DNA from: a virus
Lineage: Duplodnaviria; Caudoviricetes
Length of the DNA stretch: 64,000 nucleotides
Reading direction: 5' to 3' (one strand)
Virus record (IMG/VR): IMGVR_UViG_3300027286_000002
Below are positions 5,287 to 64,000 of this stretch, one piece after another (the first letter of the stretch is position 1; each line of letters starts with the position of its first letter). The position numbers and the translations under genes were made by a program. A model generated the notes under the pieces. It was not told the origin of the DNA, did not search any database, and worked only from the letters and a program-made list of their open reading frames with translations.

Positions 5287-6399
5287 ATGAATAAAACTCT
5301 ACTCTTAAAACTCTATCTTGAAAAACCTGCCACTGATATTGCCAAAGAACATAATCTTAAACCTGTTCAAATTCAAAAACTCTTAAGACTTTATAATATA
5401 CCTAAACCTTATCGTAATAAAGATGGCAAAGCACTTGATGTAAATCACATCCTTGATCTCTACCATAACCAAAAGAAATCTATTAAAGAAATCAGCTCTA
5501 TGCTCAACTCTACTTTAGATATGATCACTAATCTCTTATATGACAGAACACCTACACCTAAACCTACCTGCGACCAGCTTAAAGCCTGCTTAAACCTTTC
5601 CAAAAGACAAATTGCTCTCAAATTCAATCTTAAAGAATATGATGTGCATAGACTATTACTTGAATATAAACTTAGCTACAATCCTTTTAACCTGTCTAAA
5701 GAAGAATTACAGAAAGAATACCAATCACAAACCATTTCACAGATAGCTAAAAAATATCATGTAGATGCTATCTATGTTTCTGTTAAACTTAAAGAATATG
5801 GCATCCTTAATGAAATCAATATAGAAGAACTTAAAAGACTTTATTGTGATGAAAGAAAAACCATTAAAGAAATCATTTATTTGTTAAATTCATCTGAAAC
5901 TACTTTGTGGCGACTTATTAAAAAACATAAACTGCAAAGACCTTTCAATCCTAATCCACATGAATTTTTTAAGCTGTGGCATGACAAGACCAAAACAGTA
6001 GATGAGAATATACGATATATGGCAGAATATTATAAAGTGTCTATAGGTATTATTCGCTTGACTGCTAGAAAATTAAATATCAGTAAAAAGACCACACCTA
6101 TCAAAATTAAATATACACAAGAGCAATTACAGGAACTTTATGACAAGCATGACTTATTTGGTTTATCTGTTATTCTTAAAATGAATGTTGCTAATGTAAA
6201 ACGAGCATTAGTAAGACATGGCATCACTATTAAAAAGCCACCTGTTAAACCAATGGATTTAGATCGGATTACACAGCTATATAAGACAAAATATTTAGAT
6301 TTAAAAAACTTGTATGCTATTCAAGAAATTGCAAAAGAACTAGATGTTGCACCTACAACACTTCACAGGTTTATTCGTTCACATAAAATTACAAGATAG
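5287..6399 (+). CDS. Tandem helix-turn-helix repeat protein (paralog of 8012-9154)
   Basis: About 7 HTH-like units; colinear similarity to 8012-9154 (LYCDERKTIKEI..TLWRLI vs LYCVEHKSLQEI..TLWRRI; NVKRALVRHGI vs NVKRALKRNGI). Confidence 0.8.
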   Translation: MNKTLLLKLYLEKPATDIAKEHNLKPVQIQKLLRLYNIPKPYRNKDGKALDVNHILDLYHNQKKSIKEISSMLNSTLDMITNLLYDRTPTPKPTCDQLKACLNLSKRQIALKFNLKEYDVHRLLLEYKLSYNPFNLSKEELQKEYQSQTISQIAKKYHVDAIYVSVKLKEYGILNEINIEELKRLYCDERKTIKEIIYLLNSSETTLWRLIKKHKLQRPFNPNPHEFFKLWHDKTKTVDENIRYMAEYYKVSIGIIRLTARKLNISKKTTPIKIKYTQEQLQELYDKHDLFGLSVILKMNVANVKRALVRHGITIKKPPVKPMDLDRITQLYKTKYLDLKNLYAIQEIAKELDVAPTTLHRFIRSHKITR

Positions 6400-6812: not shown

Positions 6813-7031
6813 ATGTTAGAAATGCTTATTGACTACACAGACCACTTATCATTCATGGTAGATGAAACCTACTTAGATTTTCCCAACCACATGATTGCAT
6901 TTGAAGAAGATCTTTATGGCAATCTTTATCTTATTCAAAAGGATTGGATCTTTAGCAAAACACCTGTAGAATTTGAAGAAGCAGTAGAAATTGTTAAGAA
7001 CTTGCCTGAACCTATTTATTATCTAGATTAG
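6813..7031 (+). CDS. Hypothetical protein
   Basis: AAAGGAAAAAC RBS; 72 aa. Confidence 0.65.
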   Translation: MLEMLIDYTDHLSFMVDETYLDFPNHMIAFEEDLYGNLYLIQKDWIFSKTPVEFEEAVEIVKNLPEPIYYLD

Positions 7032-7248
7032 GTGCAAGGTAAAGATCACTTGAATTCTGCCACTCTGATTTATGTAAAGATTTAGCTATACTTAAAGATA
7101 GTGAACATCTAAAATATTCAGGATATACATAAAAACCTCTTGTACCACCATCTAATCTACAAGACCTTGAACTTATAGAAGACAAAGCAAATTTAAAAGT
7201 CTTAGAATTTAAAACTTCATCTGATGATATTTCTAACCAATAGATCAT
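7012..7248 (-). CDS. Mini-protein of the putative stand-alone methyltransferase specificity (TRD-like) family, array 1
   Basis: Probable start MIYWLEISS at 7248 (TAAAATG junction); family pattern W..S.V..SS..G..FR..LS..K..W.N..YLAP; closest to 54930-55166. Confidence 0.8.
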   Translation of the reverse strand: MIYWLEISSDEVLNSKTFKFALSSISSRSCRLDGGTRGFYVYPEYFRCSLSLSIAKSLHKSEWQNSSDLYLAPNLDNK

Positions 7249-7249
7249 T

Positions 7250-7489
7250 TTATATTTCACCACACTTTCCTATATACCTATCTGAATTATTTATCCAAGT
7301 AGGTTTAGACAACACTCTAGCACCAAATAAAGCAATTGCTAGTCTAAAGTTATCTGTGTATAGGTAATGTCCTATTCCTTTTATTGCCAGCTGTTTTGTT
7401 GGTGAGGTGGATGATGTTATATAAACACCTTGTAATGTATGACATACATCATTACTGTCATTGCTAAAGAAACCATAATGACTACTCAT
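7250..7489 (-). CDS. TRD-like mini-protein, array 1
   Basis: HYGFF.N.SNDV...TSS...KG.G.Y...NFR..I.LF.AR.L.K..WIN..D.YIGK; ATGA overlap. Confidence 0.85.
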   Translation of the reverse strand: MSSHYGFFSNDSNDVCHTLQGVYITSSTSPTKQLAIKGIGHYLYTDNFRLAIALFGARVLSKPTWINNSDRYIGKCGEI

Positions 7490-7719
7490 TTATCTTTTCC
7501 TATATACCTATCTTGATCGTTTATCCAATTATGTTTGGATAAAACCCTTGCACTATATAAAGCAATACAATGCCTTATGTTGCTTTGGTGTATATATGTT
7601 CCCATTCCTTTAATATCTCTGATAGTACCTGCTGTTGTAGATGATGCTAGATAAACAAGTTGACCAGAAAACTGTACATTATTTCCATATGATGCAAGGA
7701 AGCCATAGTGATTACTCAT
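7486..7719 (-). CDS. TRD-like mini-protein, array 1
   Basis: Family pattern; strongly similar to 11095-11340. Confidence 0.85.
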   Translation of the reverse strand: MSNHYGFLASYGNNVQFSGQLVYLASSTTAGTIRDIKGMGTYIHQSNIRHCIALYSARVLSKHNWINDQDRYIGKDK

Positions 7720-7956
7720 TTATATTTCTTTTCCTATGTAAACATCATTGTTATTTAACCCTGATCTCTTAATAAGAGATCTTGCACCAAACAGTCCTAT
7801 GGACAACCTAAAGTTATCTTTATACATATATGTACCAAAACCTTTAATATCTTTAGTAGTGGCTGGTGAAGTAGATGATGTTAGATACGCCCCAGATGCA
7901 GAATGACATACATCATTACATCCATTGTGAAAAAAACCATAAGGTGTTTTAGTCAT
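7720..7956 (-). CDS. TRD-like mini-protein, array 1 (first gene)
   Basis: Family pattern; AAAAGGAATTAACATG start. Confidence 0.85.
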   Translation of the reverse strand: MTKTPYGFFHNGCNDVCHSASGAYLTSSTSPATTKDIKGFGTYMYKDNFRLSIGLFGARSLIKRSGLNNNDVYIGKEI

Positions 7957-8011
7957 GTTAATTCCTTTTCAATATCTTATAAGATTTCTACAAGAAAGGA
8001 CTGCAAAAAAA

Positions 8012-9154
8012 ATGACAAAAGAATTATTAAATGATCTTATCCAAACCATGTCACATACTGAAATGGCATCTCATCTTAATATCTCGCTTAACCATTTAAG
8101 AAGACTATTAAGAGTTCACAATATCAAAAAACCTTTAAAAGATAAAGCAGGCAATCCTATTAATCTTAAATATGTTGAAACCTTGTATGATGCAGGACAT
8201 CCTGTTTCTAAAATCCATATTATGGTTAATGCTTCTTTTGATGCCATCTCTAACTACCTCAACCTAAATAAAATTCGTATTAGTAAAAAACTACTACAAC
8301 ACTACTTTATTGATGAAAAACTTTCCCTTACACAAATAGCTGATCGTTTTGGATCATCTCTTTCTACTATTAAAAAATACCTACTACTCTATGAAATCAT
8401 AAAACCTGATATTCATATTGAGAAACACGATTTAGAATCACATCCTAATATACTTGTTTCCGAACTAGCTATTCTCTTTAACACAGATAAAGAAACGATT
8501 AGCTACTTTCTTAAAAAATATGACTTGTCTAAAAAAGGCAAAGTCAATCAAGAAAAACTACAACAGCTTTATTGTGTTGAACATAAATCACTACAAGAGA
8601 TTGCAGACCATTTTAAAATCTCACATATAACTCTTTGGCGAAGGATTAGACAATATAAACTCACTAGAGAATTTAATCCTGATATAGACCTCTTTGAGCA
8701 AAAACTCTCTGAATATAGAGACCTACCTATGCACAAGGCTAAACAAAACCTTGCGAAATATTATAATGTTTCTGTTGGTGAAATTGAAATCTTTTTTAAA
8801 AAGCACAATCTACTTAAAAAAAGAAAAAGAAGAAAGGTTACCTACACAAATGACCAGCTAAGAAAGATGTATGAAAGACTTGGGATTAAAGGTCTTATGA
8901 AGAAACTAGATATGACTGAATATAATGTTAAAAGAGCATTAAAGAGAAATGGTATCTTGCCATATAGCAAACCAAATAAAAGACTTGTCTTATCTATTCC
9001 TAAAGACCATATCAAATATCTCTACCATAAGAAATATGAACATTATAATGCACCTAGTGCAAGACAAGCAATGGCAGATGAATTAGGTTTATCTTTATAT
9101 GCAGTTACAAGGTATATTCAAATGTATAATCTAAACAGACCAAGAATTTTCTAA
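8012..9154 (+). CDS. Tandem helix-turn-helix repeat protein (paralog of 5287-6399)
   Basis: Probable start MTKELL at 8012 after GAAAGGA; about 7-8 HTH-like units. Confidence 0.8.
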   Translation: MTKELLNDLIQTMSHTEMASHLNISLNHLRRLLRVHNIKKPLKDKAGNPINLKYVETLYDAGHPVSKIHIMVNASFDAISNYLNLNKIRISKKLLQHYFIDEKLSLTQIADRFGSSLSTIKKYLLLYEIIKPDIHIEKHDLESHPNILVSELAILFNTDKETISYFLKKYDLSKKGKVNQEKLQQLYCVEHKSLQEIADHFKISHITLWRRIRQYKLTREFNPDIDLFEQKLSEYRDLPMHKAKQNLAKYYNVSVGEIEIFFKKHNLLKKRKRRKVTYTNDQLRKMYERLGIKGLMKKLDMTEYNVKRALKRNGILPYSKPNKRLVLSIPKDHIKYLYHKKYEHYNAPSARQAMADELGLSLYAVTRYIQMYNLNRPRIF

Positions 9155-9758: not shown

Positions 9759-9937
9759 AAAACCATTTTAGAAAAGAATGGTTTAAACCAAGTTAGCATT
9801 ATTGTACTTCCTATTCCACAACCTAATGCAGTTCCTATAAAGCACAGACAAAAAGTTAAGATTGCTTTATTTCTTATCTTATTATCACTCGCATCTACAT
9901 ATCCTGTTCTCTTTAAGAAAAACTCTAACTCATTCAT
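9755..9937 (-). CDS. Small membrane protein at end of array 2
   Basis: One hydrophobic helix; ATGA-coupled to 9934-10158. Confidence 0.55.
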   Translation of the reverse strand: MNELEFFLKRTGYVDASDNKIRNKAILTFCLCFIGTALGCGIGSTIMLTWFKPFFSKMVF

Positions 9938-10158
9938 TTATCTTCCTTACATGGTGCTAAATACCTATTAGGATTTAATATCCAATTTCCTCGTCCAATA
10001 ACTTCTCTATTTCTTGCAGTGGACAAGGCTACAAACACTCTAAAATTAATAGGAAAGATTTCAATACCTGATTTACTTGATGCTATGCTAGATAAGGTAA
10101 AAACACTATGCTCGTTTCTAGTAACTTCATTACTACTTGTTTCAAACCAACAGATCAT
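9934..10158 (-). CDS. TRD-like mini-protein, array 2
   Basis: MICWFE.SSNEV...LSS...G..I...NFR...AR...NW...YLAP. Confidence 0.85.
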   Translation of the reverse strand: MICWFETSSNEVTRNEHSVFTLSSIASSKSGIEIFPINFRVFVALSTARNREVIGRGNWILNPNRYLAPCKEDK

Positions 10159-10364
10159 TTTTCTTCATCCTTATTAGGTGCTAGATACACATTTTCATAT
10201 TTTATCCAATCATCTTGTATAATTCTTTTTGCCACAAATAAAGATATTCTTTTCTTATCATATCCATTTAAAAAAGCACTATGTCCTATTTTAGGTATGC
10301 TACTTAATACAGTAGTGCCTTGTGCATACAAATGCACAATATTACTATCAAATACAAAATACAC
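10155..10364 (-). CDS. TRD-like mini-protein, array 2
   Basis: GTG start; close paralog of 11576-11791 (MYFVFDSNIV...KIGH...GYD.KRISLFV...W....VYLAP). Confidence 0.8.
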   Translation of the reverse strand: MYFVFDSNIVHLYAQGTTVLSSIPKIGHSAFLNGYDKKRISLFVAKRIIQDDWIKYENVYLAPNKDEEK

Positions 10365-10366
10365 TT

Positions 10367-10582
10367 TTAGTTATCCTTATTAGGTTTTAAAAACCTGTCT
10401 TGATCATTTATCCTAGTATGTTTAGGTAAAATTCGAGCATTAAATAATCCTACACTTTCTCTAAAATTACTGTCCTGTACATATAAGCCTCCACTATGAG
10501 AATAAAATTTACAGGATTGCAAATAAACAAGTTGCTGTCCTTGCCATACATTATTTGAATCACTTATGAAATAAAATCTCAT
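10367..10582 (-). CDS. TRD-like mini-protein, array 2
   Basis: F..DSNNV..Q.VYL.S...GLY...NFR...LF.AR.L.K...IND.D.FL.P. Confidence 0.85.
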   Translation of the reverse strand: MRFYFISDSNNVWQGQQLVYLQSCKFYSHSGGLYVQDSNFRESVGLFNARILPKHTRINDQDRFLKPNKDN

Positions 10583-10583
10583 A

Positions 10584-10796
10584 TCATTTCTTTCTTAAAG
10601 CTAGATAAACATCATCTCTATTTATAAAGCTGGCTGTACTCACTAACCTTCTACTCATATATAAACAGACAGATCTTCTTATATTAAAAGGCTCTACATA
10701 TAGACCATGATTTACAGATGATACACCACTTAATAAAAATACATCCTGTATGTTTTTTCCTATGTTGTTATTATTGTTCTCAAACCAATAAACCAT
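10584..10796 (-). CDS. TRD-like mini-protein, array 2
   Basis: Family pattern; AAGGAAGATAGCTTATG start. Confidence 0.85.
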   Translation of the reverse strand: MVYWFENNNNNIGKNIQDVFLLSGVSSVNHGLYVEPFNIRRSVCLYMSRRLVSTASFINRDDVYLALRKK

Positions 10797-10828
10797 AAGC
10801 TATCTTCCTTATATATAGAAATCGTGAT

Positions 10829-10861
10829 TTTTTACCTATATTGTAAAAACATAGGTAAAAA
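10829..10861. terminator. Inverted repeat (possible terminator) inside array 2
   Basis: TTTTTACCTAT-N11-ATAGGTAAAAA in the only intergenic gap of the array. Confidence 0.5.
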
Positions 10862-10862
10862 C

Positions 10863-11102
10863 TTATATTGTTTTACCTATATAGACATCGTTACTGTTTA
10901 TCCAATTTGATTTTATTAATGATCTAACACTATATAAAGTAATACATCTTCTCATATTATTCTTATACATATATAAACCATTTCCCTGTACCTCTCCCCT
11001 ATTCATATGACCCGGGGATGTGAAAGATGTCATATAAGCACCTTGAGTAGCTCCTGTAATGTTATTTTCTTTAGATGTGAAAAAACCATAGTGATTACTC
11101 AT
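10863..11102 (-). CDS. TRD-like mini-protein, array 2
   Basis: MSNHYGFF subfamily. Confidence 0.85.
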   Translation of the reverse strand: MSNHYGFFTSKENNITGATQGAYMTSFTSPGHMNRGEVQGNGLYMYKNNMRRCITLYSVRSLIKSNWINSNDVYIGKTI

Positions 11103-11340
11103 TTATCTTATCCTCTCTTCCCATGTACCTATCTTGGTCGTTTATCCATGTGTGTTTTGATAACACCCTTGCACCATATAAAGCAATGACTTGCCGTATG
11201 TTACTTTGGTGTATATATGTTCCAAATCCTTTTAAGTGATGTTTTCCACCATCGGATGTTGAGGACATTAAATAAGCACCTTGAACAGACCACTGTACAT
11301 TATTACCTTCACTGATAAAGAAACCATAGTGATTACTCAT
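11095..11340 (-). CDS. TRD-like mini-protein, array 2
   Basis: MSNHYGFF subfamily; strongly similar to 7486-7719. Confidence 0.85.
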   Translation of the reverse strand: MSNHYGFFISEGNNVQWSVQGAYLMSSTSDGGKHHLKGFGTYIHQSNIRQVIALYGARVLSKHTWINDQDRYMGREDKINE

Positions 11341-11573
11341 CTTATCTTATCCTTACCTATATAGGCATCATTACTGTTTATCCATTGTGATTTTATAAGT
11401 GTCTTTACTACAAATAAACTCACTGTCTGTCTTATATTATTTTTCTCTACATAATAACCAGCTTGCCCCATTAAACCTATACCACATCTAGGATAAGACC
11501 TTGTACTTAATAAATAACAATCCTGCATACCATGCTGTATGTCATTCCCATTACTATTAAAATAACAAATCAT
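11337..11573 (-). CDS. TRD-like mini-protein, array 2
   Basis: MICYFNSNGNDI...LLST...GYYV..NNIR...LFV.K.LIK..WIN..D.YIGK. Confidence 0.85.
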   Translation of the reverse strand: MICYFNSNGNDIQHGMQDCYLLSTRSYPRCGIGLMGQAGYYVEKNNIRQTVSLFVVKTLIKSQWINSNDAYIGKDKIR

Positions 11574-11575
11574 TC

Positions 11576-11791
11576 TTATCTCTTTGGTGCTAAATAAACA
11601 TCATCATGCTTTTCCCATGATGATTTAATAACTGATCTACATACAAATAAAGATATTCTTTTTCTGTCATATCCTCTTAAATATGCACAGTGTCCTATCT
11701 TTGGCTCACCACTAAAAAGTAAAACCCAAGAAGTATTCGTCCTCACTATATTACTATCAAATACAAAATACATTCTATTACTTCGGATCAT
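11576..11791 (-). CDS. TRD-like mini-protein, array 2 (first gene, ATGA-coupled to the methyltransferase)
   Basis: ATG at 11791 overlaps the MTase TGA (TCAT at 11788-11791). Confidence 0.8.
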   Translation of the reverse strand: MIRSNRMYFVFDSNIVRTNTSWVLLFSGEPKIGHCAYLRGYDRKRISLFVCRSVIKSSWEKHDDVYLAPKR

Positions 11792-13350
11792 TCTTTTAAA
11801 AATCCATATTCATATACACCCGGTCTTAACTTATCACCTAAAACCTTATGCAATTCTTTTAACTTCTTAAAATCTGCATTATACTCTTTTTCCCAAAATC
11901 CCTTTAACTGATACCACCCACAATCCCAACATAATAACTGCAACTCAGGATTCGCTTTAGCATATGCCTCTCTTGTTGCCAATGACTTTAACCATAATTC
12001 TGTAGCATGAACTAATAATGCCACTGCCTCTTCACTTAATGTCAATTCTGCTATTAATGTAGACACATAAGATTCTTCATAATACTTCTCATAATCTGCT
12101 AACATCAATGCACTATGCTCTTCTATTGCACCACGAATGCCATATCTCTCTAACCAAAAGAAATGATTCTTAATTTGCCAAATCTCACCACCCCATGATA
12201 CATCTCTCATAGATGTACAATTATTCTTCGTTTCAAAAATAGAATAAATATGTCCATCATCCACCCACTGCTCATAGCCTGTCTTTACTTCACTTGATGT
12301 ATGCTTATATTTATTCCCTTCGTCTAACCACCTCTGTGTAAATGGTATCGATGGATATGCAATATATTCAATTTCTTTTTCAGGTGCTTTTTTAATTGGA
12401 CCCGTCTTTTCCCTTTCCTTGATTTTAAGACCACTTGTCATAATTGGATATTCATAGGTTTCCATATCTTTAATAGGTTCTCTAACCCACTCACTAGCTG
12501 GCATATGGTTATCGCAATTATAAATCTGTTTCCATCCATAATGACTTGCATCAAGATTTTTAATTTCTAACTTTGGATCTGTCTTAGTTTTCCCTTCACT
12601 CCAAATCGTAAAGCCTACTCCCCATTCAGATGAAACACCTGCAAATGCACTCGCATTAAAGAAAAATCCTGCTTTAAATTCAAAGGCATTGTAATACCAT
12701 TCTCTAAATTTCTTTGCTGTTTCCTGAATCATAAACTTGATTGGTGAAAAGAAACATAAACTGACTTTCTTATATCCAAAATACTTTGCCTGTCTTGCAC
12801 ATTCAAAAATAAATTGAAAATATAAATTAGAACGACAAGCACCTAAATGCAACATCTTTTCTTTAACAAGTGTATTACTCACACCTTCTTTATTTTCTTC
12901 ATCATCTGCAAGTGTACCTGCCGCCGCATATGGTGGATTAATAAAGAACACAAGTCTTTTACCTGCCTTTGCTCCTGCATATAACTGATCTTGCACTGCA
13001 TCTGGAATAACATTGCTTTCATCACCTAAGCTAAACAAACATCCATCTGTATCTGTTGGATTTAAGAAATCATACTTAAAAGCATTTTTAAATCCTTGCT
13101 TATGTAGTAAATCCACTTCAGGTTGCTCTAATGTAGATAAGATTAAATTCTTAAAATCATATTCTCTAATCAAATTGCCTGAGCCTGAACAACAATCCCA
13201 TACAAGACTTTCTTCTTTCCAAGTTTCACCTAAGACATTACTTGTTAAGGTATGTGCTTGATCCACCCATAAAGCTGGTGTAAAAAATGCACCTTGTCTT
13301 GTTCGGATTTCATTCTCTAAGGTTTCATCATATCTGTGATGTTCACTCAT
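11788..13350 (-). CDS. Orphan N6-adenine DNA methyltransferase (gamma class), target-recognition region apparently shortened
   Basis: Motif X GAFFTP, motif I VWDCCSGSGNL, motif IV FINPPY; no nuclease domain. Confidence 0.9.
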   Translation of the reverse strand: MSEHHRYDETLENEIRTRQGAFFTPALWVDQAHTLTSNVLGETWKEESLVWDCCSGSGNLIREYDFKNLILSTLEQPEVDLLHKQGFKNAFKYDFLNPTDTDGCLFSLGDESNVIPDAVQDQLYAGAKAGKRLVFFINPPYAAAGTLADDEENKEGVSNTLVKEKMLHLGACRSNLYFQFIFECARQAKYFGYKKVSLCFFSPIKFMIQETAKKFREWYYNAFEFKAGFFFNASAFAGVSSEWGVGFTIWSEGKTKTDPKLEIKNLDASHYGWKQIYNCDNHMPASEWVREPIKDMETYEYPIMTSGLKIKEREKTGPIKKAPEKEIEYIAYPSIPFTQRWLDEGNKYKHTSSEVKTGYEQWVDDGHIYSIFETKNNCTSMRDVSWGGEIWQIKNHFFWLERYGIRGAIEEHSALMLADYEKYYEESYVSTLIAELTLSEEAVALLVHATELWLKSLATREAYAKANPELQLLCWDCGWYQLKGFWEKEYNADFKKLKELHKVLGDKLRPGVYEYGFLKE

Positions 13351-53155: not shown

Positions 53156-53362
53156 ATACCATTTGATTGTCCACAGGTCTTTATCTACCATATAATCTAA
53201 TATCTCTAAAGACCAAAATAAAAAAAGGTAGCCTGATATTTTTACATACCAAACTACCTTCTCTTGTACTGCCAATTCGCTTTTAAATAATATGATGCTT
53301 ACTTTTATATAACATAGAAACCATAAAGCTAACCATATTATTAACATCAAATACCTTATCAA
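53135..53362 (-). CDS. Small membrane protein
   Basis: Two hydrophobic helices. Confidence 0.5.
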   Translation of the reverse strand: MIRYLMLIIWLALWFLCYIKVSIILFKSELAVQEKVVWYVKISGYLFLFWSLEILDYMVDKDLWTIKWYLRFRTI

Positions 53363-54222: not shown

Positions 54223-54708
54223 TTATTTTCCCATTTGAAATTTGCCACCTACTTTTAAAGTTTTAGGTGGCAAAGACCATTCGTCTTGTTGAATGACAGG
54301 TTGTTGTGGTTTAAGGTCTTGTGGATTACCTACAAAATATAGATTTTGCACAGGTGTGTTTATCTCATCATTTTGAGATATGACAACAGGTTTTTCAATC
54401 TGTCCTATCTTATAATGTTTAGGCTGTGTTTTATTAAAATCTAAACTAGCTGGTGTCCATACATCAATAGCTGGATTGATATGGTATTCTTCAAAATCAC
54501 TGATGCCTTTATATTGAGATGCTTCAGATTGCTTTATTGTAGGTGTATTAAAAAACCTATCGACTTGAGTAATAATTCTTTCATCCCAAGTAGAAAATGC
54601 CCAGCTTGCTCTTTCACATTTTCTATTTTTACAAACCTTGCAAAACATTTCAGTAAAGTCTTTTTCTGTCATGCCTTGATTATTACATTCAAATAATAAA
54701 TCTTTCAT
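54223..54708 (-). CDS. Hypothetical protein with Cys motif
   Basis: FCKVCKNRKCERA; TAAAATG-coupled to array 3. Confidence 0.7.
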   Translation of the reverse strand: MKDLLFECNNQGMTEKDFTEMFCKVCKNRKCERASWAFSTWDERIITQVDRFFNTPTIKQSEASQYKGISDFEEYHINPAIDVWTPASLDFNKTQPKHYKIGQIEKPVVISQNDEINTPVQNLYFVGNPQDLKPQQPVIQQDEWSLPPKTLKVGGKFQMGK

Positions 54709-54709
54709 T

Positions 54710-54928
54710 TTATTTATCTTCTTTCTTTGGTGAGATATATAAATCAGAATCTACAATCCAATTATTTCTGCCTACGATTTCTCTTGCTCTTGCAATCGAT
54801 AATGCCATACACCTTCTAAAATTATCTTTTGTAATCACAAGTCCAGCTCCTTCATAATTGTTTATATAATGACATAGCTTTTCATTATATTGAAACCTAT
54901 TGCCACCATGATGAAACCAATATAACAT
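54710..54928 (-). CDS. TRD-like mini-protein, array 3
   Basis: Family pattern; closest to 55625-55846 (NNYEGAG/NNYQGAG). Confidence 0.85.
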   Translation of the reverse strand: MLYWFHHGGNRFQYNEKLCHYINNYEGAGLVITKDNFRRCMALSIARAREIVGRNNWIVDSDLYISPKKEDK

Positions 54929-54929
54929 T

Positions 54930-55166
54930 TTATCTACATTCTTTCTTAGGTGCTAAATACACATCTGCTTGATTTATCCAAGTATGTTTTATTAAAGATT
55001 TAGATACACTTAATGCTATGCTATCTCTAAAATAATAAGGCTGTAAAAAGAAACCTTGTTTGCCACAATCATCTCTACTAGCTTTTGAAGTAATAGAACT
55101 AATAAAATACTTATATTGTGATGAGTGCATTACATCATTTGATGATAATTCTAACCAACAAATCAT
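54930..55166 (-). CDS. TRD-like mini-protein, array 3
   Basis: Family pattern; closest to 7012-7248. Confidence 0.85.
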   Translation of the reverse strand: MICWLELSSNDVMHSSQYKYFISSITSKASRDDCGKQGFFLQPYYFRDSIALSVSKSLIKHTWINQADVYLAPKKECR

Positions 55167-55390
55167 TTCTCTTCATCCTTAATAATAGGAGCATAATATC
55201 TATCACAATTATTTATCCAAGTTCTATTTATAACATCTCTTCCTCTTGCTACATAGATAGACATATTTAATCTAAAGTTTTTCTGATCTATGTAATATCC
55301 TGAATGTCTACTAGATACACTTGATAAAAAGAAGACATGAGAATCAATAGATGTGATGTCATTATTTGAATTTTCAAACCAACAAATCAT
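55163..55390 (-). CDS. TRD-like mini-protein, array 3
   Basis: MICWFENSNNDI...FLSS...GYYI..KNFR...AR...TWIN..D.YYAP. Confidence 0.85.
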   Translation of the reverse strand: MICWFENSNNDITSIDSHVFFLSSVSSRHSGYYIDQKNFRLNMSIYVARGRDVINRTWINNCDRYYAPIIKDEEK

Positions 55391-55395
55391 TTTAC

Positions 55396-55623
55396 TTATC
55401 TTTCTATAGTAGGTTTAAAATACATATCATTAGCACGATGCCAATTCTCATATTTCCTAGAATCCATAAGATAACCTGTTCTCACAATATAGAAAGCTAA
55501 AGCATCTCTAAAATTAGTTTCTTTTATAGGTAATCCTGTGTTTCCAAAAGAACTTGAAGTGATTAACACAAATCGAGTATTTCTTTTCACTTCATTCGCT
55601 GACATCTCAAAACTAAAAATCAT
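55396..55623 (-). CDS. TRD-like mini-protein, array 3
   Basis: F..S.NEV...TSS...G..I...NFR...Y..R...NW...D.YF.P. Confidence 0.8.
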   Translation of the reverse strand: MIFSFEMSANEVKRNTRFVLITSSSFGNTGLPIKETNFRDALAFYIVRTGYLMDSRKYENWHRANDMYFKPTIER

Positions 55624-55624
55624 T

Positions 55625-55846
55625 TTACTTATCTCTCTTACATGGTGCTAAATGCACATCACAATCTTGATACCAATTTCTACCATTAGGCTGGACTAAT
55701 GCTCTAACATTAAAGAAAGCTATACTCTTCCTAAATGAGTTTCCCTCCCTTATATGAAATCCTGCACCTTGATAGTTATTTACTAAGAATACTAACTCTT
55801 TATTGTATCTTACTAAATTTCCATGTGAGTGAAACCAACAGATCAT
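55625..55846 (-). CDS. TRD-like mini-protein, array 3
   Basis: Family pattern. Confidence 0.85.
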   Translation of the reverse strand: MICWFHSHGNLVRYNKELVFLVNNYQGAGFHIREGNSFRKSIAFFNVRALVQPNGRNWYQDCDVHLAPCKRDK

Positions 55847-55847
55847 T

Positions 55848-56069
55848 TTACTTATCTTTCTTACATGGTGCTAAATATACATCAGGATCGTTCATCCATG
55901 TATTTTCAGGTAAAGTCCTAGCTATAAATAAACCTATTGTATTTCTAAACGATTCTTTATTTCTAGGATACATTCCACTAACATTAGATGATAATTTAGA
56001 TGAAATAAAACATACAAGTAAAGGATTGAACTGCACATTATTGCCATTATTATTAAACCAACAGATCAT
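55848..56069 (-). CDS. TRD-like mini-protein, array 3
   Basis: Probable start MICWFNNNGNNV at 56069. Confidence 0.85.
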   Translation of the reverse strand: MICWFNNNGNNVQFNPLLVCFISSKLSSNVSGMYPRNKESFRNTIGLFIARTLPENTWMNDPDVYLAPCKKDK

Positions 56070-56286
56070 TTTTTGTTCTTTCCACTGATAATGCCAAATA
56101 CACATCAGGATCATTCATCCAAGTATGTTTAGGTAAAGACCTTCCTATATATAAAGAAATTGACTTCCTAAAATTATCTTTTCTTATATAGAAACCATGT
56201 TGATTGTGATATGCACTACTAAATAATGCTACTTGCCAATGATTATGACATACACAACCACCACGATTATTAAAATAACAGATCAT
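56053..56286 (-). CDS. TRD-like mini-protein, array 3 (first gene, 6 bp after the DNA polymerase stop)
   Basis: MICYFNN...FSS...HGFYI..DNFRK...Y..R.LPK.TWMNDPDVYLA. Confidence 0.85.
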   Translation of the reverse strand: MICYFNNRGGCVCHNHWQVALFSSAYHNQHGFYIRKDNFRKSISLYIGRSLPKHTWMNDPDVYLALSVERTKNDLLV

Positions 56287-56292
56287 TTTAAT

Positions 56293-58893
56293 TTATTCCT
56301 TTAATAAGATAGATACATCTCTACCTTGATACATAATCTTAATGTCTTTACCTGCATTATTCTTAATCCATTCGCTTAACCTGTCTGTTTCACTATGAGA
56401 TAACTCACTCAACTCATAAATCTCATAATGCTTTGCTTTTTCCTCTTGCTCCGTGCTTAAGGTTGTTTCATTTAATACCTTTGGCTTTGGCTGTCCACTA
56501 TGATCTACTTTAAAAGCATTTACTAAAAACTCATCTTCACCTTTGCCTTCCCTTAACTCTTTCAAGTCATAAGGCACAGACCAATCTTTTCCTATCTCAA
56601 CATCCACTGTTAATGGTACAATCCAATTCTTATTTTGCAATGCTTTATTCCTAACCATAATATCACATAACAAAGGTATCGCTTCACCTATAATGTCTTT
56701 ATGGATTTCAAACACAATTTCATCATGCACTGTTAAAATCATCATTAGCTTATCAAACCAATTTCTCTTTTTAACATTCTCATAAATTAAACTCATTGCA
56801 ATCTTAGTAATATCTGCACTCGTACCTTGCACAGGTGAATTTACTGCCTTTCTCTCATCCTTTGATCTCAAAGAAAACTCTTTAGATTTAATATCAGGCA
56901 TTAACATTCTTCGACCAAAAGCTGTTAATACATATCCATTTTCTTTGGCAAAATCCACTTCCTTTTTCCACCACTTTGTTAAACCTTTATATGTCTTTGT
57001 AAAGGTTTGATATTTCTCATCACCTTCTTCTTGAGTACAACTAATAGTTCTAACTACTGCTTTACCTGTACCACCATAACATAAAGCAAAATTAACACCT
57101 TTCGCATTGCCTCTTAATGCTTTCCAATCAGGTCTTTTCTTTGCCTCTTCACCATAAAAAGCAACTGCTGTCAATGTATGCAAATCACCTATTTTATCTG
57201 ATCCACATATACAGATAGCTGGTGGTATAATAGGAAATCCATCTTCGCCTCGTTCTTTAGTATATTTACGATTGCATGATGAACATCTAAAAAATTCTTC
57301 AATCCATAAAGGCTCTTGACTAATGTTTGTTACAATTCTTAACTCAACACCTGCATAGTCAATTGCTACTAAATAATGATCAGGATTTCTTACTGCAATA
57401 CACTCTCTTAATCTTGAAGTAATCATTGGTCTTTTCGGATCATATCCTGATGGAATACCTTGAAAAGGTACTCTACAACCACCATCTTTTGTCTCCCATG
57501 GTCTACTTGTAGTACCACAACTAAAACGACCTGTATCTGCTCCGAACTGATTAAACTTTGGTTTTAATGTACCATCATCTGCAATATCTTCTTTCATAGG
57601 TATGAGATATTGACCTAATGCTTTAGCTAGTTCTCTTAATCTTTTAATCTTTCTCACAAATGGAAAAGTATCGGATGCCTCTTCAATTACTTCATCTAAA
57701 ACATCAGCACCTGTTGCCACTTGACCACTTGCAGTAGTTTGTAAATTAGGTACTTCTAATTCTCTAAACATCATGCCTAATTGTTGAGAAGATAAAATAT
57801 CATATTTATATTCAAAGACTACTTCTTCTTTTTGTTTAGGATTAGTTAAAGATGCTACCATTTTTCTAGCTACAAAATCTTCACCTGCCATATCTAAATG
57901 TGGATACATACGATCAGCTTCTTTTCTTGCCTCGTCTATGCAATCTTTAAAGCTATCTGTATTATCTGTATTAAACTTATTAACACCTTTTAAATCGCCT
58001 TTCATGATTTTAATGTATGCTGGCATAACATCTCTACCAAGTAATTCATTTGCTCCTTCATATACTTCAATAAGGCTGTCCATCCATTCCTTTTGACCAA
58101 TCTTAATAAACTCTTGTGTTTTCTTTTGATCAATATAAACTCTGTTTCTGTGCATCCACCTAACTGATGTATTGCATTTCTTTTCTATCATATAAAGACT
58201 AATCATTTCTTTAGGAAAGATGTCTTTTAAGATATTATAAAGTTTAAGAGTACATAAAGCATCAGCACCTGCATACCATACACAAGCATCCCAAGACGGA
58301 TCAAGAGTAGAATAATCTTTAATTTTAGATTTAGGAATGAGTTCATCAAGTTCAATCATTTCCCAACCTAATTTATCTTTAGACATATCTTTAAGACCAC
58401 GACCACCTTTATCACGACTGTTCATAAGACAAGCCATAATATAGTTATCTTCCCATAGCTTTGGATTTTCAAATCTTTCTTTACCTAAAAGAGTTTCGCC
58501 ATTATATTCTAAAAACTCTTGATCAAAAGCACCATTATGGAATATAGGAATAGCAGTAGCATTTACATTAAGCAAGCGACTAAATTCTCTATCTATGATT
58601 GACCATGAAACATTATGTTCTGTACCTGCACTGTGTCTAATAGGAAAGTAATATGCTTTCTTTTCATTCGGAGCAATAGAAATACCTACAATAGATGCTC
58701 TTGTTCTACCATGAAAAACACGATTATCTAAACCTGTTGTTTCTAAGTCTATGCCATAATGACTAGATGCCAAACATTCATCAATAGCTTGTTTAATATT
58801 ATCTTTAGTACCTAAAATGAGATCAACTTCTTTCATCCATTTTTTAGGTTTAACATCTGGTCTTTGTAGTGATTCAAAGAAATCTGAAAACAT
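56293..58893 (-). CDS. Family A DNA polymerase with 3'-5' exonuclease
   Basis: Exo I IDLETTG, Exo II FHNGAFD, Exo III YAGADA; motif A IDYAGVELRI, motif B RGNAKGVNFALCYG, motif C TVHDEIVFE. Confidence 0.95.
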   Translation of the reverse strand: MFSDFFESLQRPDVKPKKWMKEVDLILGTKDNIKQAIDECLASSHYGIDLETTGLDNRVFHGRTRASIVGISIAPNEKKAYYFPIRHSAGTEHNVSWSIIDREFSRLLNVNATAIPIFHNGAFDQEFLEYNGETLLGKERFENPKLWEDNYIMACLMNSRDKGGRGLKDMSKDKLGWEMIELDELIPKSKIKDYSTLDPSWDACVWYAGADALCTLKLYNILKDIFPKEMISLYMIEKKCNTSVRWMHRNRVYIDQKKTQEFIKIGQKEWMDSLIEVYEGANELLGRDVMPAYIKIMKGDLKGVNKFNTDNTDSFKDCIDEARKEADRMYPHLDMAGEDFVARKMVASLTNPKQKEEVVFEYKYDILSSQQLGMMFRELEVPNLQTTASGQVATGADVLDEVIEEASDTFPFVRKIKRLRELAKALGQYLIPMKEDIADDGTLKPKFNQFGADTGRFSCGTTSRPWETKDGGCRVPFQGIPSGYDPKRPMITSRLRECIAVRNPDHYLVAIDYAGVELRIVTNISQEPLWIEEFFRCSSCNRKYTKERGEDGFPIIPPAICICGSDKIGDLHTLTAVAFYGEEAKKRPDWKALRGNAKGVNFALCYGGTGKAVVRTISCTQEEGDEKYQTFTKTYKGLTKWWKKEVDFAKENGYVLTAFGRRMLMPDIKSKEFSLRSKDERKAVNSPVQGTSADITKIAMSLIYENVKKRNWFDKLMMILTVHDEIVFEIHKDIIGEAIPLLCDIMVRNKALQNKNWIVPLTVDVEIGKDWSVPYDLKELREGKGEDEFLVNAFKVDHSGQPKPKVLNETTLSTEQEEKAKHYEIYELSELSHSETDRLSEWIKNNAGKDIKIMYQGRDVSILLKE

Positions 58894-60188: not shown

Positions 60189-63100
60189 TTATCCATTTGA
60201 ACGAACATTAAATGTAAATTGAATATACAATAATGGGAATACTGGCTTGTAGAAAGCATTGATCAATAATCCTGTCGCATCTTCAGGATCTTGTACCACT
60301 GCCAAACCTGTATATGATTCAATGATGCCACTCAAAACAAGTCTTTGAAATTCATTATTGACTGCTAATAAAACCTGTGTTTGAATCACAGGTAAATTCT
60401 TAACACCAATAAATCCATCCAAAACACCTCTCATTGTTCTTTGAACTTGATCTGCAATTTGAATGATTGTAGGTGTCTTTGTCAATACAGATGACATATT
60501 GGTTGTTAAACCATGTCTAATCTTAATGGTTGTGCCTGCATTCTCAAGAATAGAAACACCTTTAACTGCTGTTGCATTTGCCTCAACAGGTGTTAGATTT
60601 CTCAATACACCATTAAAGCCATTTACTTGTCTTGATTCCCATGGGGTAGCAACATCAATATTAATAGATGTTGTTGTACCAGCTACTGCACAAGCTAAAT
60701 AGCGACCATCTACAATATAAGTAACAGGATTACCTGTTGCATTTGTGATAGTTAAACTTGCAATATCTGGATAAATAACACGAACACGACTTGAACCTGT
60801 AAGATTTGCCAAACGACCTGCTTCTTTTGGAATAGTACCACTTGCAAAACCTAAAATCGCTGTTCTTTCAGATCTAAATCTTAATGAACTTTGTAAATCA
60901 CAATGCTTGCTAATATGACTTAACAAACTTTCACTTGCAGGGATCAATGGCAAAATTACTGATGGTGTCAAAACTGCTGTAATGCCACCTTCAATAGAAT
61001 CAATCGCTTCAATCATTTGTGTTTCTGTGATTTCAGCACTACCTGCTAATCTCTTAATTTGTTTACAAGCAATTGTACCTGCACCATTCAAGATTGCAAG
61101 ATAAGCACCTAATGACATAGGATTTTGTGTAGATACTTCACCATATTCAGATACAACATCTGCAATGCTATTAAATACCTTTGTTGTATAGTCTACTTTC
61201 TCTTGTGTATAAGAGATATAATAAACTTGACCAATATCAGGTTCACTGCCACCTTTGTCAAAGGTTTCAAGATTAGCTGTATCACCTACTGAAACACCTG
61301 TTGTATTTGATACGATTACAGATACACCATTAACAAAGTTCTTTGGAATATTTGCATTACAAGTGATGTTTTGACTTACATTCCATTTAAAGAAAGCATT
61401 TGCATCTTGGGGATAATCTACACCACCATCTCTTGGCAAAATAGTGAATGTTAATCCTGTTACAGCATCTACATAGGTTTGACCAATATAACCATCTTGA
61501 CCAAGACCACTATTGAAAATAGAAGTATTAGCTGAACCTGATCCATTAGATACACTTGATTTTACATAGAAACCTTGTTTAGCATCTTCACCAACTGCAC
61601 CATCTAAATTTGTAATCTTTAATCCTGTGCCTTTGGTTGTAATCGCATTGCCACCTGTGAAATCTACAATAGATCCTACACCTGTGCTTAAACTTTCAAT
61701 CGCTAGATATTGCTTGTTAGTTGCACTAATATGTACAAAAGCAACAGCCTTTGATTTGAAATAGTCATTTGCAAGAGTTTCACCAAAAAGCAAATCTGTT
61801 AATGTATTTGATTGATGGCTCATTAATGCACTTACAATTTGACTTGCATTTACACTAGATGATGTAGAGGTTTGATTTGCAGTTAAACCTAAAGTTTCAT
61901 TTGCACTACCATTTAAAACTTTAAGATAACTATTTACAAAAGATCCACCACCTACAATACGAATGCCTGCACCTTCTTGAGTAGCTACTACAATAGCATC
62001 TACACCAGCATCAGCAAAAGCATTATTGATTTGATCTACAATAGAATTAGAGATCAAGATCAAACCATCTACAATACTCTCACCTACACAAGTTAAAGTG
62101 CCTGTGCCACTAGATGTAAATTCTACACTTACAATAGTTCCATTCACATCAAGCAATAAAGTATTATTAGCTGGATATGAGTTATTAGTACCATTATAGA
62201 ATTTCACAGCTGGTTGACTGTCTGCTGTCTTTTGTTCTGTCCAACCTGTTAATAACTTTAATGTAGGTTGTTGAACGACTGCACCTTTAAGAGCAGATGC
62301 AAAACTTGCTTTTAATCCTGCCTTTGTTAATAAGCTACCTGCTACTACACGGATACCTAACTCACCACTTGGTAAGAAATATGTATTGCCTTGAAAGAAA
62401 CGATTTCTCAAAATCAATCTTTCTTTTAAAGCACCACCACCTAGTGAAGTAGTAGCAACTTGTGCAACAGGTAAAAGACCAAATTTAGTTTGTGTACCAT
62501 CTGCATCATCTGTATCAATACCTGCAATGATAGCAAAATCATCTTCAGGATCAGCTTGGCTAATAAATTCAAGGTAACCATAGGTATCTTCATCAGCTAG
62601 AATGTGGACTACTGTGCCTGTACCACCTAAGAAAAATCCATTATTGTTAGCAGTAAAGACAGTACCAATATTATTATCTGCACTACCTACCATTGTATAG
62701 TCTGTACCACCTACTGTTAAAATAACATAGGTATCACCATCTACAATATCTTGAGCATCTACAATTTCAAATTTCTTGCCTAATTGATCTAAGCTAAAAA
62801 TCAAACGCCCTTGTGAATTTGCAGTAACAGAAATAATCACACCTTCAGTAACACCATCTACTTCATATTGAAGTAAAGCATCTACTAATGCACTATTGAT
62901 TTGTGTTTCAAGTTCTGTTGCCAAAGCAGTAGCAGTAGAATAAACAGCATCATTTAAAGTGATTGAAATTTCGCCTACTGTTCCATTTACATTACCTACA
63001 AATTGGAAAGATAAAGTATCATGGCTGTTTGCAATAATCTCTACACCACCATTTAAGGTAGTCATGGTTTGGTATTGAGCAGATACAGAATTACAAGCAA

Positions 63101-64000
63101 TATTAATAGCATTTGCAATATCTGTAGCAGTACAATTTGCGACTGTGCCAATGTTCACTACTACATCTTGATTATCCAGCTTTAATTGAATGCTGTCATT
63201 ACCTGCACTAATTGTACCTAAATCTTCCAATCCACTTTCTACTGTATATGGCAACACATCACCTACGATATGTGCAATCGCTCCAAAACGACCTGCACCT
63301 GTTGGTGCTGATAAACTTACACCACCTGTGATAGTTGCTTCATCAATAGCTAAATTGATTTGATCGCTTGTATCTTTAATGGTGAAATATGGACTTGCTC
63401 CACCACTAATATATAAAGCACTTGTAGGATTGCTAGATGCAAATTTAACAGTCACTGTTTCATTAATAGGTGTGCCTGTTGTGATACGAGCATCAGGTAG
63501 TAATTCACTGCCACTTGGGAAAGACAAATCTACACCATTTAAAGATGATCCTTTTGTACCTAAAGTAACATCATATAAAGCACTACCTTGCTTTAAAACT
63601 TGATATTTACCTGATCCACTTGCACCATCTGAAATACAAACAAATTGATATTGATTATTTCCACCAATAGTAGAATCAGTCAAAGTGTTATAATAGAAAG
63701 TAGCAAATACTTCTTTGCCTTCTTCTACTTCTTCAGATAAGACGATTGTGGAATCAACAGGATTAACACGAACGACTACTGAATCAGCTTTCTCAATCGC
63801 ATCGGTAAAATTATATCCTACTTTGACTTGAACTAAATCTGCTCTTGAAGTAGGTGTGCCTGAACCTGTACCATCGACAGGTTGGTATGGCAATTTAAAT
63901 GTGCTTGGTAAAGGTCTAGGTGGTACAACACTTGTGTCAATTACTCTTTCACATTTAACAAGATAAACCTTATCATCTTTTAAAGATGCTGTGATTTGGC
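60189..64000 (-). CDS. Contractile tail sheath protein, 5' end beyond window
   Basis: Sheath C-terminal domain (IRHGLTT...IADQV..MRGVLDGFIG...FYKPVFPLLYIQFTF); frame stays open from 63893 to base 64000. Confidence 0.85.
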   Translation of the reverse strand, partial: QITASLKDDKVYLVKCERVIDTSVVPPRPLPSTFKLPYQPVDGTGSGTPTSRADLVQVKVGYNFTDAIEKADSVVVRVNPVDSTIVLSEEVEEGKEVFATFYYNTLTDSTIGGNNQYQFVCISDGASGSGKYQVLKQGSALYDVTLGTKGSSLNGVDLSFPSGSELLPDARITTGTPINETVTVKFASSNPTSALYISGGASPYFTIKDTSDQINLAIDEATITGGVSLSAPTGAGRFGAIAHIVGDVLPYTVESGLEDLGTISAGNDSIQLKLDNQDVVVNIGTVANCTATDIANAINIACNSVSAQYQTMTTLNGGVEIIANSHDTLSFQFVGNVNGTVGEISITLNDAVYSTATALATELETQINSALVDALLQYEVDGVTEGVIISVTANSQGRLIFSLDQLGKKFEIVDAQDIVDGDTYVILTVGGTDYTMVGSADNNIGTVFTANNNGFFLGGTGTVVHILADEDTYGYLEFISQADPEDDFAIIAGIDTDDADGTQTKFGLLPVAQVATTSLGGGALKERLILRNRFFQGNTYFLPSGELGIRVVAGSLLTKAGLKASFASALKGAVVQQPTLKLLTGWTEQKTADSQPAVKFYNGTNNSYPANNTLLLDVNGTIVSVEFTSSGTGTLTCVGESIVDGLILISNSIVDQINNAFADAGVDAIVVATQEGAGIRIVGGGSFVNSYLKVLNGSANETLGLTANQTSTSSSVNASQIVSALMSHQSNTLTDLLFGETLANDYFKSKAVAFVHISATNKQYLAIESLSTGVGSIVDFTGGNAITTKGTGLKITNLDGAVGEDAKQGFYVKSSVSNGSGSANTSIFNSGLGQDGYIGQTYVDAVTGLTFTILPRDGGVDYPQDANAFFKWNVSQNITCNANIPKNFVNGVSVIVSNTTGVSVGDTANLETFDKGGSEPDIGQVYYISYTQEKVDYTTKVFNSIADVVSEYGEVSTQNPMSLGAYLAILNGAGTIACKQIKRLAGSAEITETQMIEAIDSIEGGITAVLTPSVILPLIPASESLLSHISKHCDLQSSLRFRSERTAILGFASGTIPKEAGRLANLTGSSRVRVIYPDIASLTITNATGNPVTYIVDGRYLACAVAGTTTSINIDVATPWESRQVNGFNGVLRNLTPVEANATAVKGVSILENAGTTIKIRHGLTTNMSSVLTKTPTIIQIADQVQRTMRGVLDGFIGVKNLPVIQTQVLLAVNNEFQRLVLSGIIESYTGLAVVQDPEDATGLLINAFYKPVFPLLYIQFTFNVRSNG

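Follow-up and report, generated by a model that had tools for sequence, protein, structure and literature searches.

A stretch of 64,000 nucleotides (hereafter the window) from IMG/VR virus record IMGVR_UViG_3300027286_000002, the source of which is a giant freshwater phage, carries at positions 54710-56286 on the minus strand an array of seven paralogous mini-genes (cassettes) of 72-78 codons each, directly behind the gene for a family-A DNA polymerase. The window is part of a 146.7-kb record (estimated completeness 47%, GC content about 31%). The seven genes probably encode trans-acting recognition modules for a gapped DNA methyltransferase (MTase) encoded elsewhere in the window, and would form a fast-turning library that is made together with the polymerase. 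The results computed here in favour of this reading are the homology of the cassettes to a segment of MTase recognition regions, the gap at that segment in the phage enzyme, a predicted docking of the two proteins, purifying selection on the cassettes and turnover of whole cassettes among related phages. A profile search found 19 members of the cassette family, all within the window; the rest of the record contains no further copy. Twelve of the 19 sit beside the MTase gene, and the other seven are those behind the polymerase, 41.4 kb from the MTase gene (which ends at 13350). A first-pass annotation of the window, made by a model from its letters alone, had placed the array more than 40 kb from this gene, and the coordinates agree with it.

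The seven proteins of the polymerase-side array can be aligned end to end, with 28-51% identity to the first copy, and share an M-I-C-W-F start, an N-F-R...A-R helix and a W-x-N-x-x-D-x-Y-L-A-P end. A profile built from the seven copies scores every copy at E 1e-30 to 1e-36, far beyond chance. The DNA of the array has a periodicity of 220-233 nt, and its most conserved stretches straddle the cassette junctions. Between orthologous cassettes in two close relatives of the phage, omega is 0.06-0.33, which indicates purifying selection; together with the profile scores, these values rule out that the mini-genes are chance open reading frames (ORFs) or decaying repeats. None of the mini-proteins has a match in Pfam (including Methylase_S), PHROGs, NCBIfam or PADLOC, and nothing similar was found in GenBank phages by megablast or tblastn.

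The MTase gene of the window encodes a 520-residue enzyme of the gamma class of N6-adenine DNA MTases. Its translation contains the S-adenosylmethionine glycine motif D-C-C-S-G-S-G-N upstream of F-F-I-N-P-P-Y, which is the gamma-class order, and N-P-P-Y is invariant in comparisons with 12 and with 38 homologs. The gene is under purifying selection, with omega 0.12 against the ortholog in a complete relative (G002). The enzyme has no Pfam match at E <=0.01, its best NCBIfam match is MAD2 at E 0.16, and PADLOC, PHROGs and a sequence search of the PDB gave no match; judged by these sequence searches, the clade is outside current curated family models. Homologs of the enzyme fall into a phage-type group of 510-557 residues (67-91% identity) and hundreds of longer proteins (about 37% identity). 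A profile of all 19 cassettes matches one internal segment, located after the catalytic domain, in nearly every long homolog (E 1e-13 to 1e-20), and it matches no phage-type enzyme among the MTase homologs. In this region the aligned homologs have about 95 residues, the module included, against about 44 in the phage enzyme. The aligned phage-type enzymes share a conserved short linker at this gap.

When 1.84 billion representatives were searched exhaustively with the profile, 488 proteins matched, and architectures were read from the best 150. Of these best 150, 96 are stand-alone mini-proteins. The other forms among them are proteins of about 540-600 residues composed of catalytic domain, module and C-terminal domain, an approximately 820-residue form with a nuclease-like N-terminal extension, and single chains in which two, three, four or five divergent modules stand in tandem. 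The existence of such fused enzymes suggests that module multiplicity is itself under selection. Among the fused enzymes, one with four modules is encoded on a phage-like contig. The full-length MTase family is widespread in bacteria. In a more distant phage, whose enzyme shares 70% identity, stand-alone modules again come after a gapped enzyme.

Several members of these architectures may be described individually. The multi-module MTases include P0121, P0122, P0123, P0124, P0167, P0022, P0018 and P0219. In P0122, four consecutive modules with linkers of 3-7 residues share a single flanking frame of the recognition domain, and in other multi-module enzymes this frame is duplicated as well; the layout of P0122 suggests, at the level of sequence, that its modules might dock alternately within one polypeptide. 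Proteins of about 300 residues (P0190, P0209, P0225, P0228, P0237, P0245, P0260 and similar ones) combine the tail of a catalytic domain, one module and a C-terminal domain, and may reflect either a further mode of splitting the enzyme or gene calls that were cut short. In the more distant phage with the 70%-identical enzyme, a second, unrelated MTase gene (L098:2944-3837; PF01555, N6_N4_Mtase) lies on the opposite strand in the middle of a module array.

The complex of the phage MTase with cassette 5 was predicted from separate alignments for each protein, in three runs and with three controls. The interaction score (ipSAE, interaction prediction score from aligned errors) was 0.77, 0.74 and 0.00 in the three runs, with a median of 0.74, and the best of the three controls reached 0.01. 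For comparison, 58 of 80 solved complexes and two of 110 mismatched pairs attain a score of 0.74. The predicted local distance difference test score (pLDDT) of the cassette was 78, 70 and 32 across the runs. The predicted contacts place the helix and the C-terminal strand of the module on residues 359-379, 501-519 and 274-290 of the enzyme. As a model, the prediction supports binding of the cassette to the gapped enzyme. Further, the predicted interface positions are somewhat better conserved than the remaining ones (mean entropy 2.15 vs 2.48, one-sided p 0.036), and the most variable stretches of the mini-proteins are residues 13-18, 25-30 and 35-37.

The position of the module within the enzyme was examined through a single-chain homolog, P0212, and the comparison to solved gamma-class MTases applies to this protein and not to the phage enzyme itself. 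The model of P0212 (pLDDT 88.8) resembles DrdV (Z 17.2; root-mean-square deviation 3.6, 241 residues aligned), M.TaqI (Z 15.2) and MmeI (Z 14.3), and is also like LlaGI, M.BseCI and CamA; DrdV, M.TaqI, M.BseCI, MmeI and CamA lie within Z 14-17. The module in P0212 follows the catalytic domain, which is the position of the recognition domain in the solved relatives. In an exhaustive alignment of the recognition fragment against 48,161 chains, seven chains reached Z >=2, and six of the seven were matched in recognition regions, at Z values of only 2.3-3.6. These six are M.BseCI, DrdV, LlaBIII, PglX, CamA and a Type I HsdS (1yf2, Z 2.3). The matched range of PglX lies inside its published target recognition domain (TRD), residues 662-849 (PMC11341690). 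In these models, the position of the module in the recognition region is clear, and its fold likeness is weak but pointed. The mini-protein corresponds to three strands and one helix, about 66 central residues of a recognition domain of about 160. The first-pass annotation had called the mini-genes TRD-like. This description stands in that they are homologous to a segment of the recognition region, and in particular to the segment absent from the phage enzyme. It fails if taken to mean whole TRDs, an identification that was rejected, as each mini-protein is the core of one TRD only.

Four relatives of the phage were found through the polymerase, and their cassettes were grouped into types (A to J) by clustering at 70% identity. 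The slot is the same in all four: the array begins 5-7 nt past the polymerase stop and ends just before a homolog of the 161-residue gene that follows the array in the window. Its content is variable. With cassettes lacking a partner written as dots, the window (seven cassettes) reads D E A B F G H; L001 (polymerase 98% identical, 11 cassettes) reads. B F A... H C. J; L012 (98%, 13 cassettes) reads D E. A. B. G. J. I C; L002 (90%, two cassettes) reads. C; and L011 (89%, three cassettes) has only cassettes without a partner (...). The orders differ at 98% polymerase identity, and thus whole cassettes have been inserted, lost and moved among those phages. The first-pass annotation had anticipated variable array length and content at a conserved site in related phages, and the series of 2, 3, 7, 11 and 13 cassettes at one slot is of this kind. 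Cassette type I occurs both in the polymerase-side array of L012 and as the last gene (9934-10158) of array 2, next to the MTase gene of the window; thus, the arrays draw on one pool. Synonymous divergence between orthologous cassettes is 0.12-1.45, against 0.08 and 0.27 for the polymerase in the same genome pairs, an excess of about 1.6-5x that comes from small counts. Exchange between lineages, for instance, may have made the cassette alleles older than their flanks, or the cassettes may change faster locally.

Variation is also hinted at within populations and seen within single arrays. DNA contigs from four runs fragment within the array, with loose ends at cassette borders (about 55361/55394, 55832-55863, 56073 and 56137), and two joints were seen in them, at low depth and with sides of 22-38 nt: a forward skip of 255 nt and a step back of 664 nt. 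These breaks hint at population variants of the array. In the window, the A-P-x-K...stop ending usual for cassettes is missing from cassette 1, whose reading frame continues for 17 nt within cassette 2 and yields a different 13-residue tail (56053-56120); this altered end may be early decay or a tolerated variant. Decaying cassettes are present in the complete relative, where a single ORF (L003:2548-2841) has two partial module matches, one cassette (G002:208272-208505) contains an internal TAA, and an isolated 90-nt remnant (G002:284709-284798) contains two stops.

The array is packed closely against the polymerase gene. Six nucleotides separate the polymerase stop from the ATG of cassette 1, and at the other end the stop of cassette 7 lies 1 nt from the ATG of the 161-residue gene; both the 6-bp spacing and the coupling to the downstream gene had been noted in the first reading of the window. 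Neighbouring cassettes overlap by up to 17 nt or are separated by up to 5 nt, most often in the form TAA-A-ATG, and the ATG of cassette 6 overlaps the TGA of cassette 5. The longest ORF at cassette 2 opens with an ATG further upstream, but the true start is at 56069, where the protein begins with MICWF like its paralogues. Within the last codons of the polymerase gene there is a ribosome-binding motif, AAGGA, for cassette 1. Thus, the polymerase gene and the array have the packing of a single operon, with genes on the same strand, spacings from a 17-nt overlap to a 6-nt gap and no terminator-like site between them; the first terminator-like site downstream of the polymerase on this strand is a strong hairpin with a T-run (53265-53220). 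Since the cassettes abut the polymerase gene, the two are most likely on the same transcript, and the sequence layout points to translational coupling as well. A scan for sigma-70-type promoters gave 45 matches against 43.7 expected, which is chance level. Repeated sigma-70-type matches at the cassette junctions were considered as promoters and rejected, because they stem from conserved codons and overlap start codons.

The location beside replication genes recurs in the complete 316-kb relative, G002. In this genome, the single MTase gene is followed by an array and the polymerase gene by two cassettes. Three more cassettes occupy a third site (L004:1773-2524), flanked by a gene for a DnaB-like helicase (PF03796, E 3e-21) and one for a DnaG-type zinc-ribbon protein (PF01807, E 1e-8). 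In the genome of the window (L099:969-3006), the helicase and zinc-ribbon genes are 4 nt apart with no cassette. The polymerase slot and the helicase/zinc-ribbon slot thus make two array sites among replication genes, and such placement is not confined to the polymerase. The first-pass annotation had inferred that the subunits are co-expressed with the replication machinery.

The coordinates of the cassettes and of the other genes concerned are collected in Table 1. The 161-residue protein that bounds the slot has a C-x-x-C-x-x-x-x-C cluster near its N-terminus and an omega of about 0.2 between relatives; it gave no match in Pfam, PHROGs, NCBIfam or PADLOC and no usable match in the ESM Atlas. 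Near array 1, two paralogous-looking proteins (5287-6399 and 7955-9154) have multiple helix-turn-helix matches (HTH_23 and others). The gene at 7955-9154 is divergent and overlaps the start of the first cassette of array 1 by 2 nt.

Table 1. Positions of the polymerase, the methyltransferase, the cassettes and associated features in the window
Feature	Position	Strand	Evidence and remarks
Family-A DNA polymerase with 3'-5' exonuclease domain	56293-58893	minus	PF00476 E 9e-70, PF01612 E 9e-10, phrog_17 E 1e-98
Cassette 1, 77 aa, type D	56053-56286	minus	L012 ortholog 94% identical, with normal end
Cassette 2, 73 aa, type E	55848-56069	minus	L012 ortholog 90% identical, omega 0.17
Cassette 3, 73 aa, type A	55625-55846	minus	L001 ortholog 83.3% identical (85% in BLAST alignment), omega 0.08; L012 ortholog 94.5%, omega 0.08
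Cassette 4, 75 aa, type B	55396-55623	minus	L001 ortholog 89%, L012 ortholog 97%; omega 0.09-0.14
Cassette 5, 75 aa, type F	55163-55390	minus	L001 ortholog 85%, omega 0.11; copy used for docking
Cassette 6, 78 aa, type G	54930-55166	minus	L012 ortholog 90%, omega 0.18
Cassette 7, 72 aa, type H	54710-54928	minus	L001 ortholog 94%, omega 0.06
161-aa gene bounding the array slot downstream	54223-54708	minus	Homolog directly after the array in L001, L002, L011 and L012
Terminator-like hairpin with T-run	53220-53265	minus	Terminator scan, sequence read
Gapped gamma-class N6-adenine DNA methyltransferase, 520 aa	11788-13350	minus	NPPY motif retained
Array 2, eight cassettes directly downstream of the MTase gene	9934-11791	minus	Profile search
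Array 1, four cassettes	7012-7956	minus	Profile search

A mechanism may be proposed from these results. The cassettes would be free-standing versions of the central beta-beta-beta-alpha unit of the recognition domain of a monomeric gamma-class N6-adenine MTase. The phage enzyme would have retained its catalytic and C-terminal helical domains but, of the recognition domain, only the outer frame, in which a short conserved linker takes the place of the unit. One mini-protein at a time would then dock in trans into the gap, through its conserved helix and C-terminal strand, and so complete the DNA-reading domain, while its hypervariable loops (residues about 13-18, 25-30 and 35-37) would set the motif that is methylated. 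We infer binding in the cell and a specificity particular to each module. With one catalytic core and interchangeable modules, the DNA of the phage might be protected from many host restriction systems. The polymerase-side array would be one of several storage sites of this library, in which the gain, loss and reshuffling of whole cassettes probably proceed via recombination at the conserved junctions. Expressed from the polymerase transcript, these cassettes would be made when new DNA is made.

Several observations weigh against this proposal. At residues about 337-348, the gapped enzyme has W-L-D-E-x-x-x-Y, a sequence similar to the module's last strand (W-I-N-x-x-D-x-Y). A last-strand-like motif is thus retained in the enzyme and is also present in the mini-proteins, so that the deletion and the free module overlap and their exact fit is uncertain. 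One of the three docking runs scored 0.00, and a split-gene pair can pass a docking test through its likeness to the single-chain form. The contrast between interface and variable positions is modest. In fold, solved TRDs resemble the recognition fragment only weakly, as the Z values show, and a Foldseek search with the model of the fragment (pLDDT 91.3) returned nothing at E <=0.001. The copy-number series is based on five genomes only. The other genes of the polymerase cluster have no replication function recognised by Pfam or PHROGs, and the cluster is not a clean replication operon. A co-directional gene upstream of the polymerase (60189-63893, 1234 residues) has a weak match to a tail-sheath C-terminal domain (E 3e-4, below the Pfam cut-off), and structural and replication genes appear to be mixed in this cluster.

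Other explanations account for parts of the evidence. The mini-proteins might complete or activate the MTase without changing its target, the copies being kept for dosage, for escape from host inhibitors or as neutral duplications. The homology, the gap and the docking prediction would fit this equally well. However, the copies are only about 30-50% identical and combine conserved docking positions with hypervariable stretches, and their orthologs are under purifying selection, whereas dosage should favour copies that are alike; in addition, phages differ in their cassette sets, and fused enzymes with two to five divergent modules exist, all of which makes this explanation distinctly unlikely. 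It is also conceivable, and in our view quite improbable, that the mini-proteins are anti-restriction decoys, which mimic a piece of host restriction-modification enzymes of the same family (about 820 residues) and poison or mislead them. Full-length members with the nuclease-like N-terminal domain are common in bacteria, and arrays of diversified small genes in phages are typical of counter-defence. Decoys would nevertheless leave unexplained both the missing segment of a phage enzyme that has intact catalytic motifs and is under purifying selection and the eight cassettes directly after its gene; moreover, the site is already filled in the single-chain host enzymes, and docking is predicted to the phage enzyme, with clean controls. 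Finally, the mini-proteins might be TRD-derived DNA-binding or regulatory proteins that act without the MTase, for example on replication or transcription, as could be suggested by the two array sites that adjoin replication genes (that of the polymerase in the window, and those of the helicase and the primase in G002). This is highly improbable given that a mid-domain piece of about 70 residues is unlikely to fold and read DNA alone, that the pLDDT of the partner fell to 32 in one docking run, and that one cassette type is common to MTase-adjacent and polymerase-adjacent arrays. The gap, the predicted docking, diversity that persists under purifying selection and the existence of fused multi-module relatives are not jointly explained by any of these rivals.

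A separate question is the link between the array and the polymerase. The array could be transcribed on its own, its position being simply a tolerated insertion hot spot; the slots are filled or empty depending on the relative, as a hot spot would be, and promoter-like matches are at chance level. Yet gaps of at most 6 nt leave no non-coding room for a promoter, the ribosome-binding motif of cassette 1 lies within the polymerase gene, and no terminator-like site intervenes, so that separate transcription is unlikely. Cotranscription with the polymerase is the arrangement that we infer from this packing.

If the trans-acting recognition modules were confirmed, a function would be available for about 100 clusters of hypothetical metagenome proteins of about 70 residues, and the modules would provide a natural, minimal handle to retarget an adenine MTase. 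In the broadest form of the proposal, for which we would put the chances slightly below even, the system is a programmable MTase with plug-ins of about 70 residues, of which 14 to more than 19 are present per phage and are traded between genomes and arrays, while the arrays in replication clusters allow newly made DNA to be methylated at many motifs at once. If this were true, the motif of such an enzyme could be deduced from a very small detachable module and altered by engineering it, and the number of cassettes would predict the number of host restriction systems evaded. What the polymerase-side array adds is that the library is spread over several sites and turns over cassette by cassette among near-identical phages. 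The two array sites among replication genes suggest that DNA synthesis and protective methylation are linked in time.

Orphan and multispecific MTases are known means by which phages evade restriction. The C5-cytosine MTases of the Bacillus phages SPR, phi3T and rho11s are multispecific, with one core and several target-recognising modules (Trautner et al. 1996, EMBO J 15:1434, as cited in PMC12707154). The present system would be similar in that one phage catalytic core is combined with alternative modules, presumably to methylate several motifs and escape restriction, and relatives of the present family also carry two to five tandem modules per chain. It differs in its chemistry, the NPPY motif being that of an amino-methyltransferase, here of N6-adenine, and in that its modules are encoded not within the polypeptide of the enzyme but by separate genes of about 75 codons that stand in arrays, in part at a distance of 41 kb from the gene of the enzyme; fused tandem modules are seen in relatives only.

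In Type I restriction-modification systems, specificity likewise comes from a separate, exchangeable polypeptide that acts in trans, as would be the case here, and loci with several or shuffling hsdS genes exist. HsdS, however, is a protein of about 400 residues with two full recognition domains and coiled-coil spacers that binds two HsdM subunits, whereas the mini-proteins have 72-78 residues, three strands and one helix and no Pfam Methylase_S match, and would be a free core of about 66 residues with the frame remaining on a monomer-type enzyme. Here, each cassette is an intact ORF, and neither an invertase nor silent half-genes were seen. Structurally, the single-chain form is closest to the Type IIL/IIG enzymes MmeI and DrdV and to PglX of bacteriophage exclusion (BREX) systems, in which the recognition domain also follows the catalytic domain; the nuclease-like N-terminus on the long members of the present family is another likeness. 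In MmeI and PglX, the motif is set by a few residues of the recognition domain (PMC4081073, PMC11341690). Specificity in these enzymes is changed by point mutation in one chain and not by swapping of a detached sub-domain, and the present family, which has no Pfam or PADLOC matches, does not share a sequence family with them.

Split enzymes form a further point of comparison. M.AquI and M.EcoHK31I are DNA MTases that consist of two separately encoded chains, with one fixed partner and one specificity. A search of open-access papers and preprints found no published account of a core MTase with a dispersed library of detached recognition modules. In contrast to M.AquI and M.EcoHK31I, the gapped enzyme described here has at least 19 alternative candidate partners and, if their role is confirmed, would represent a new way to encode multispecificity.

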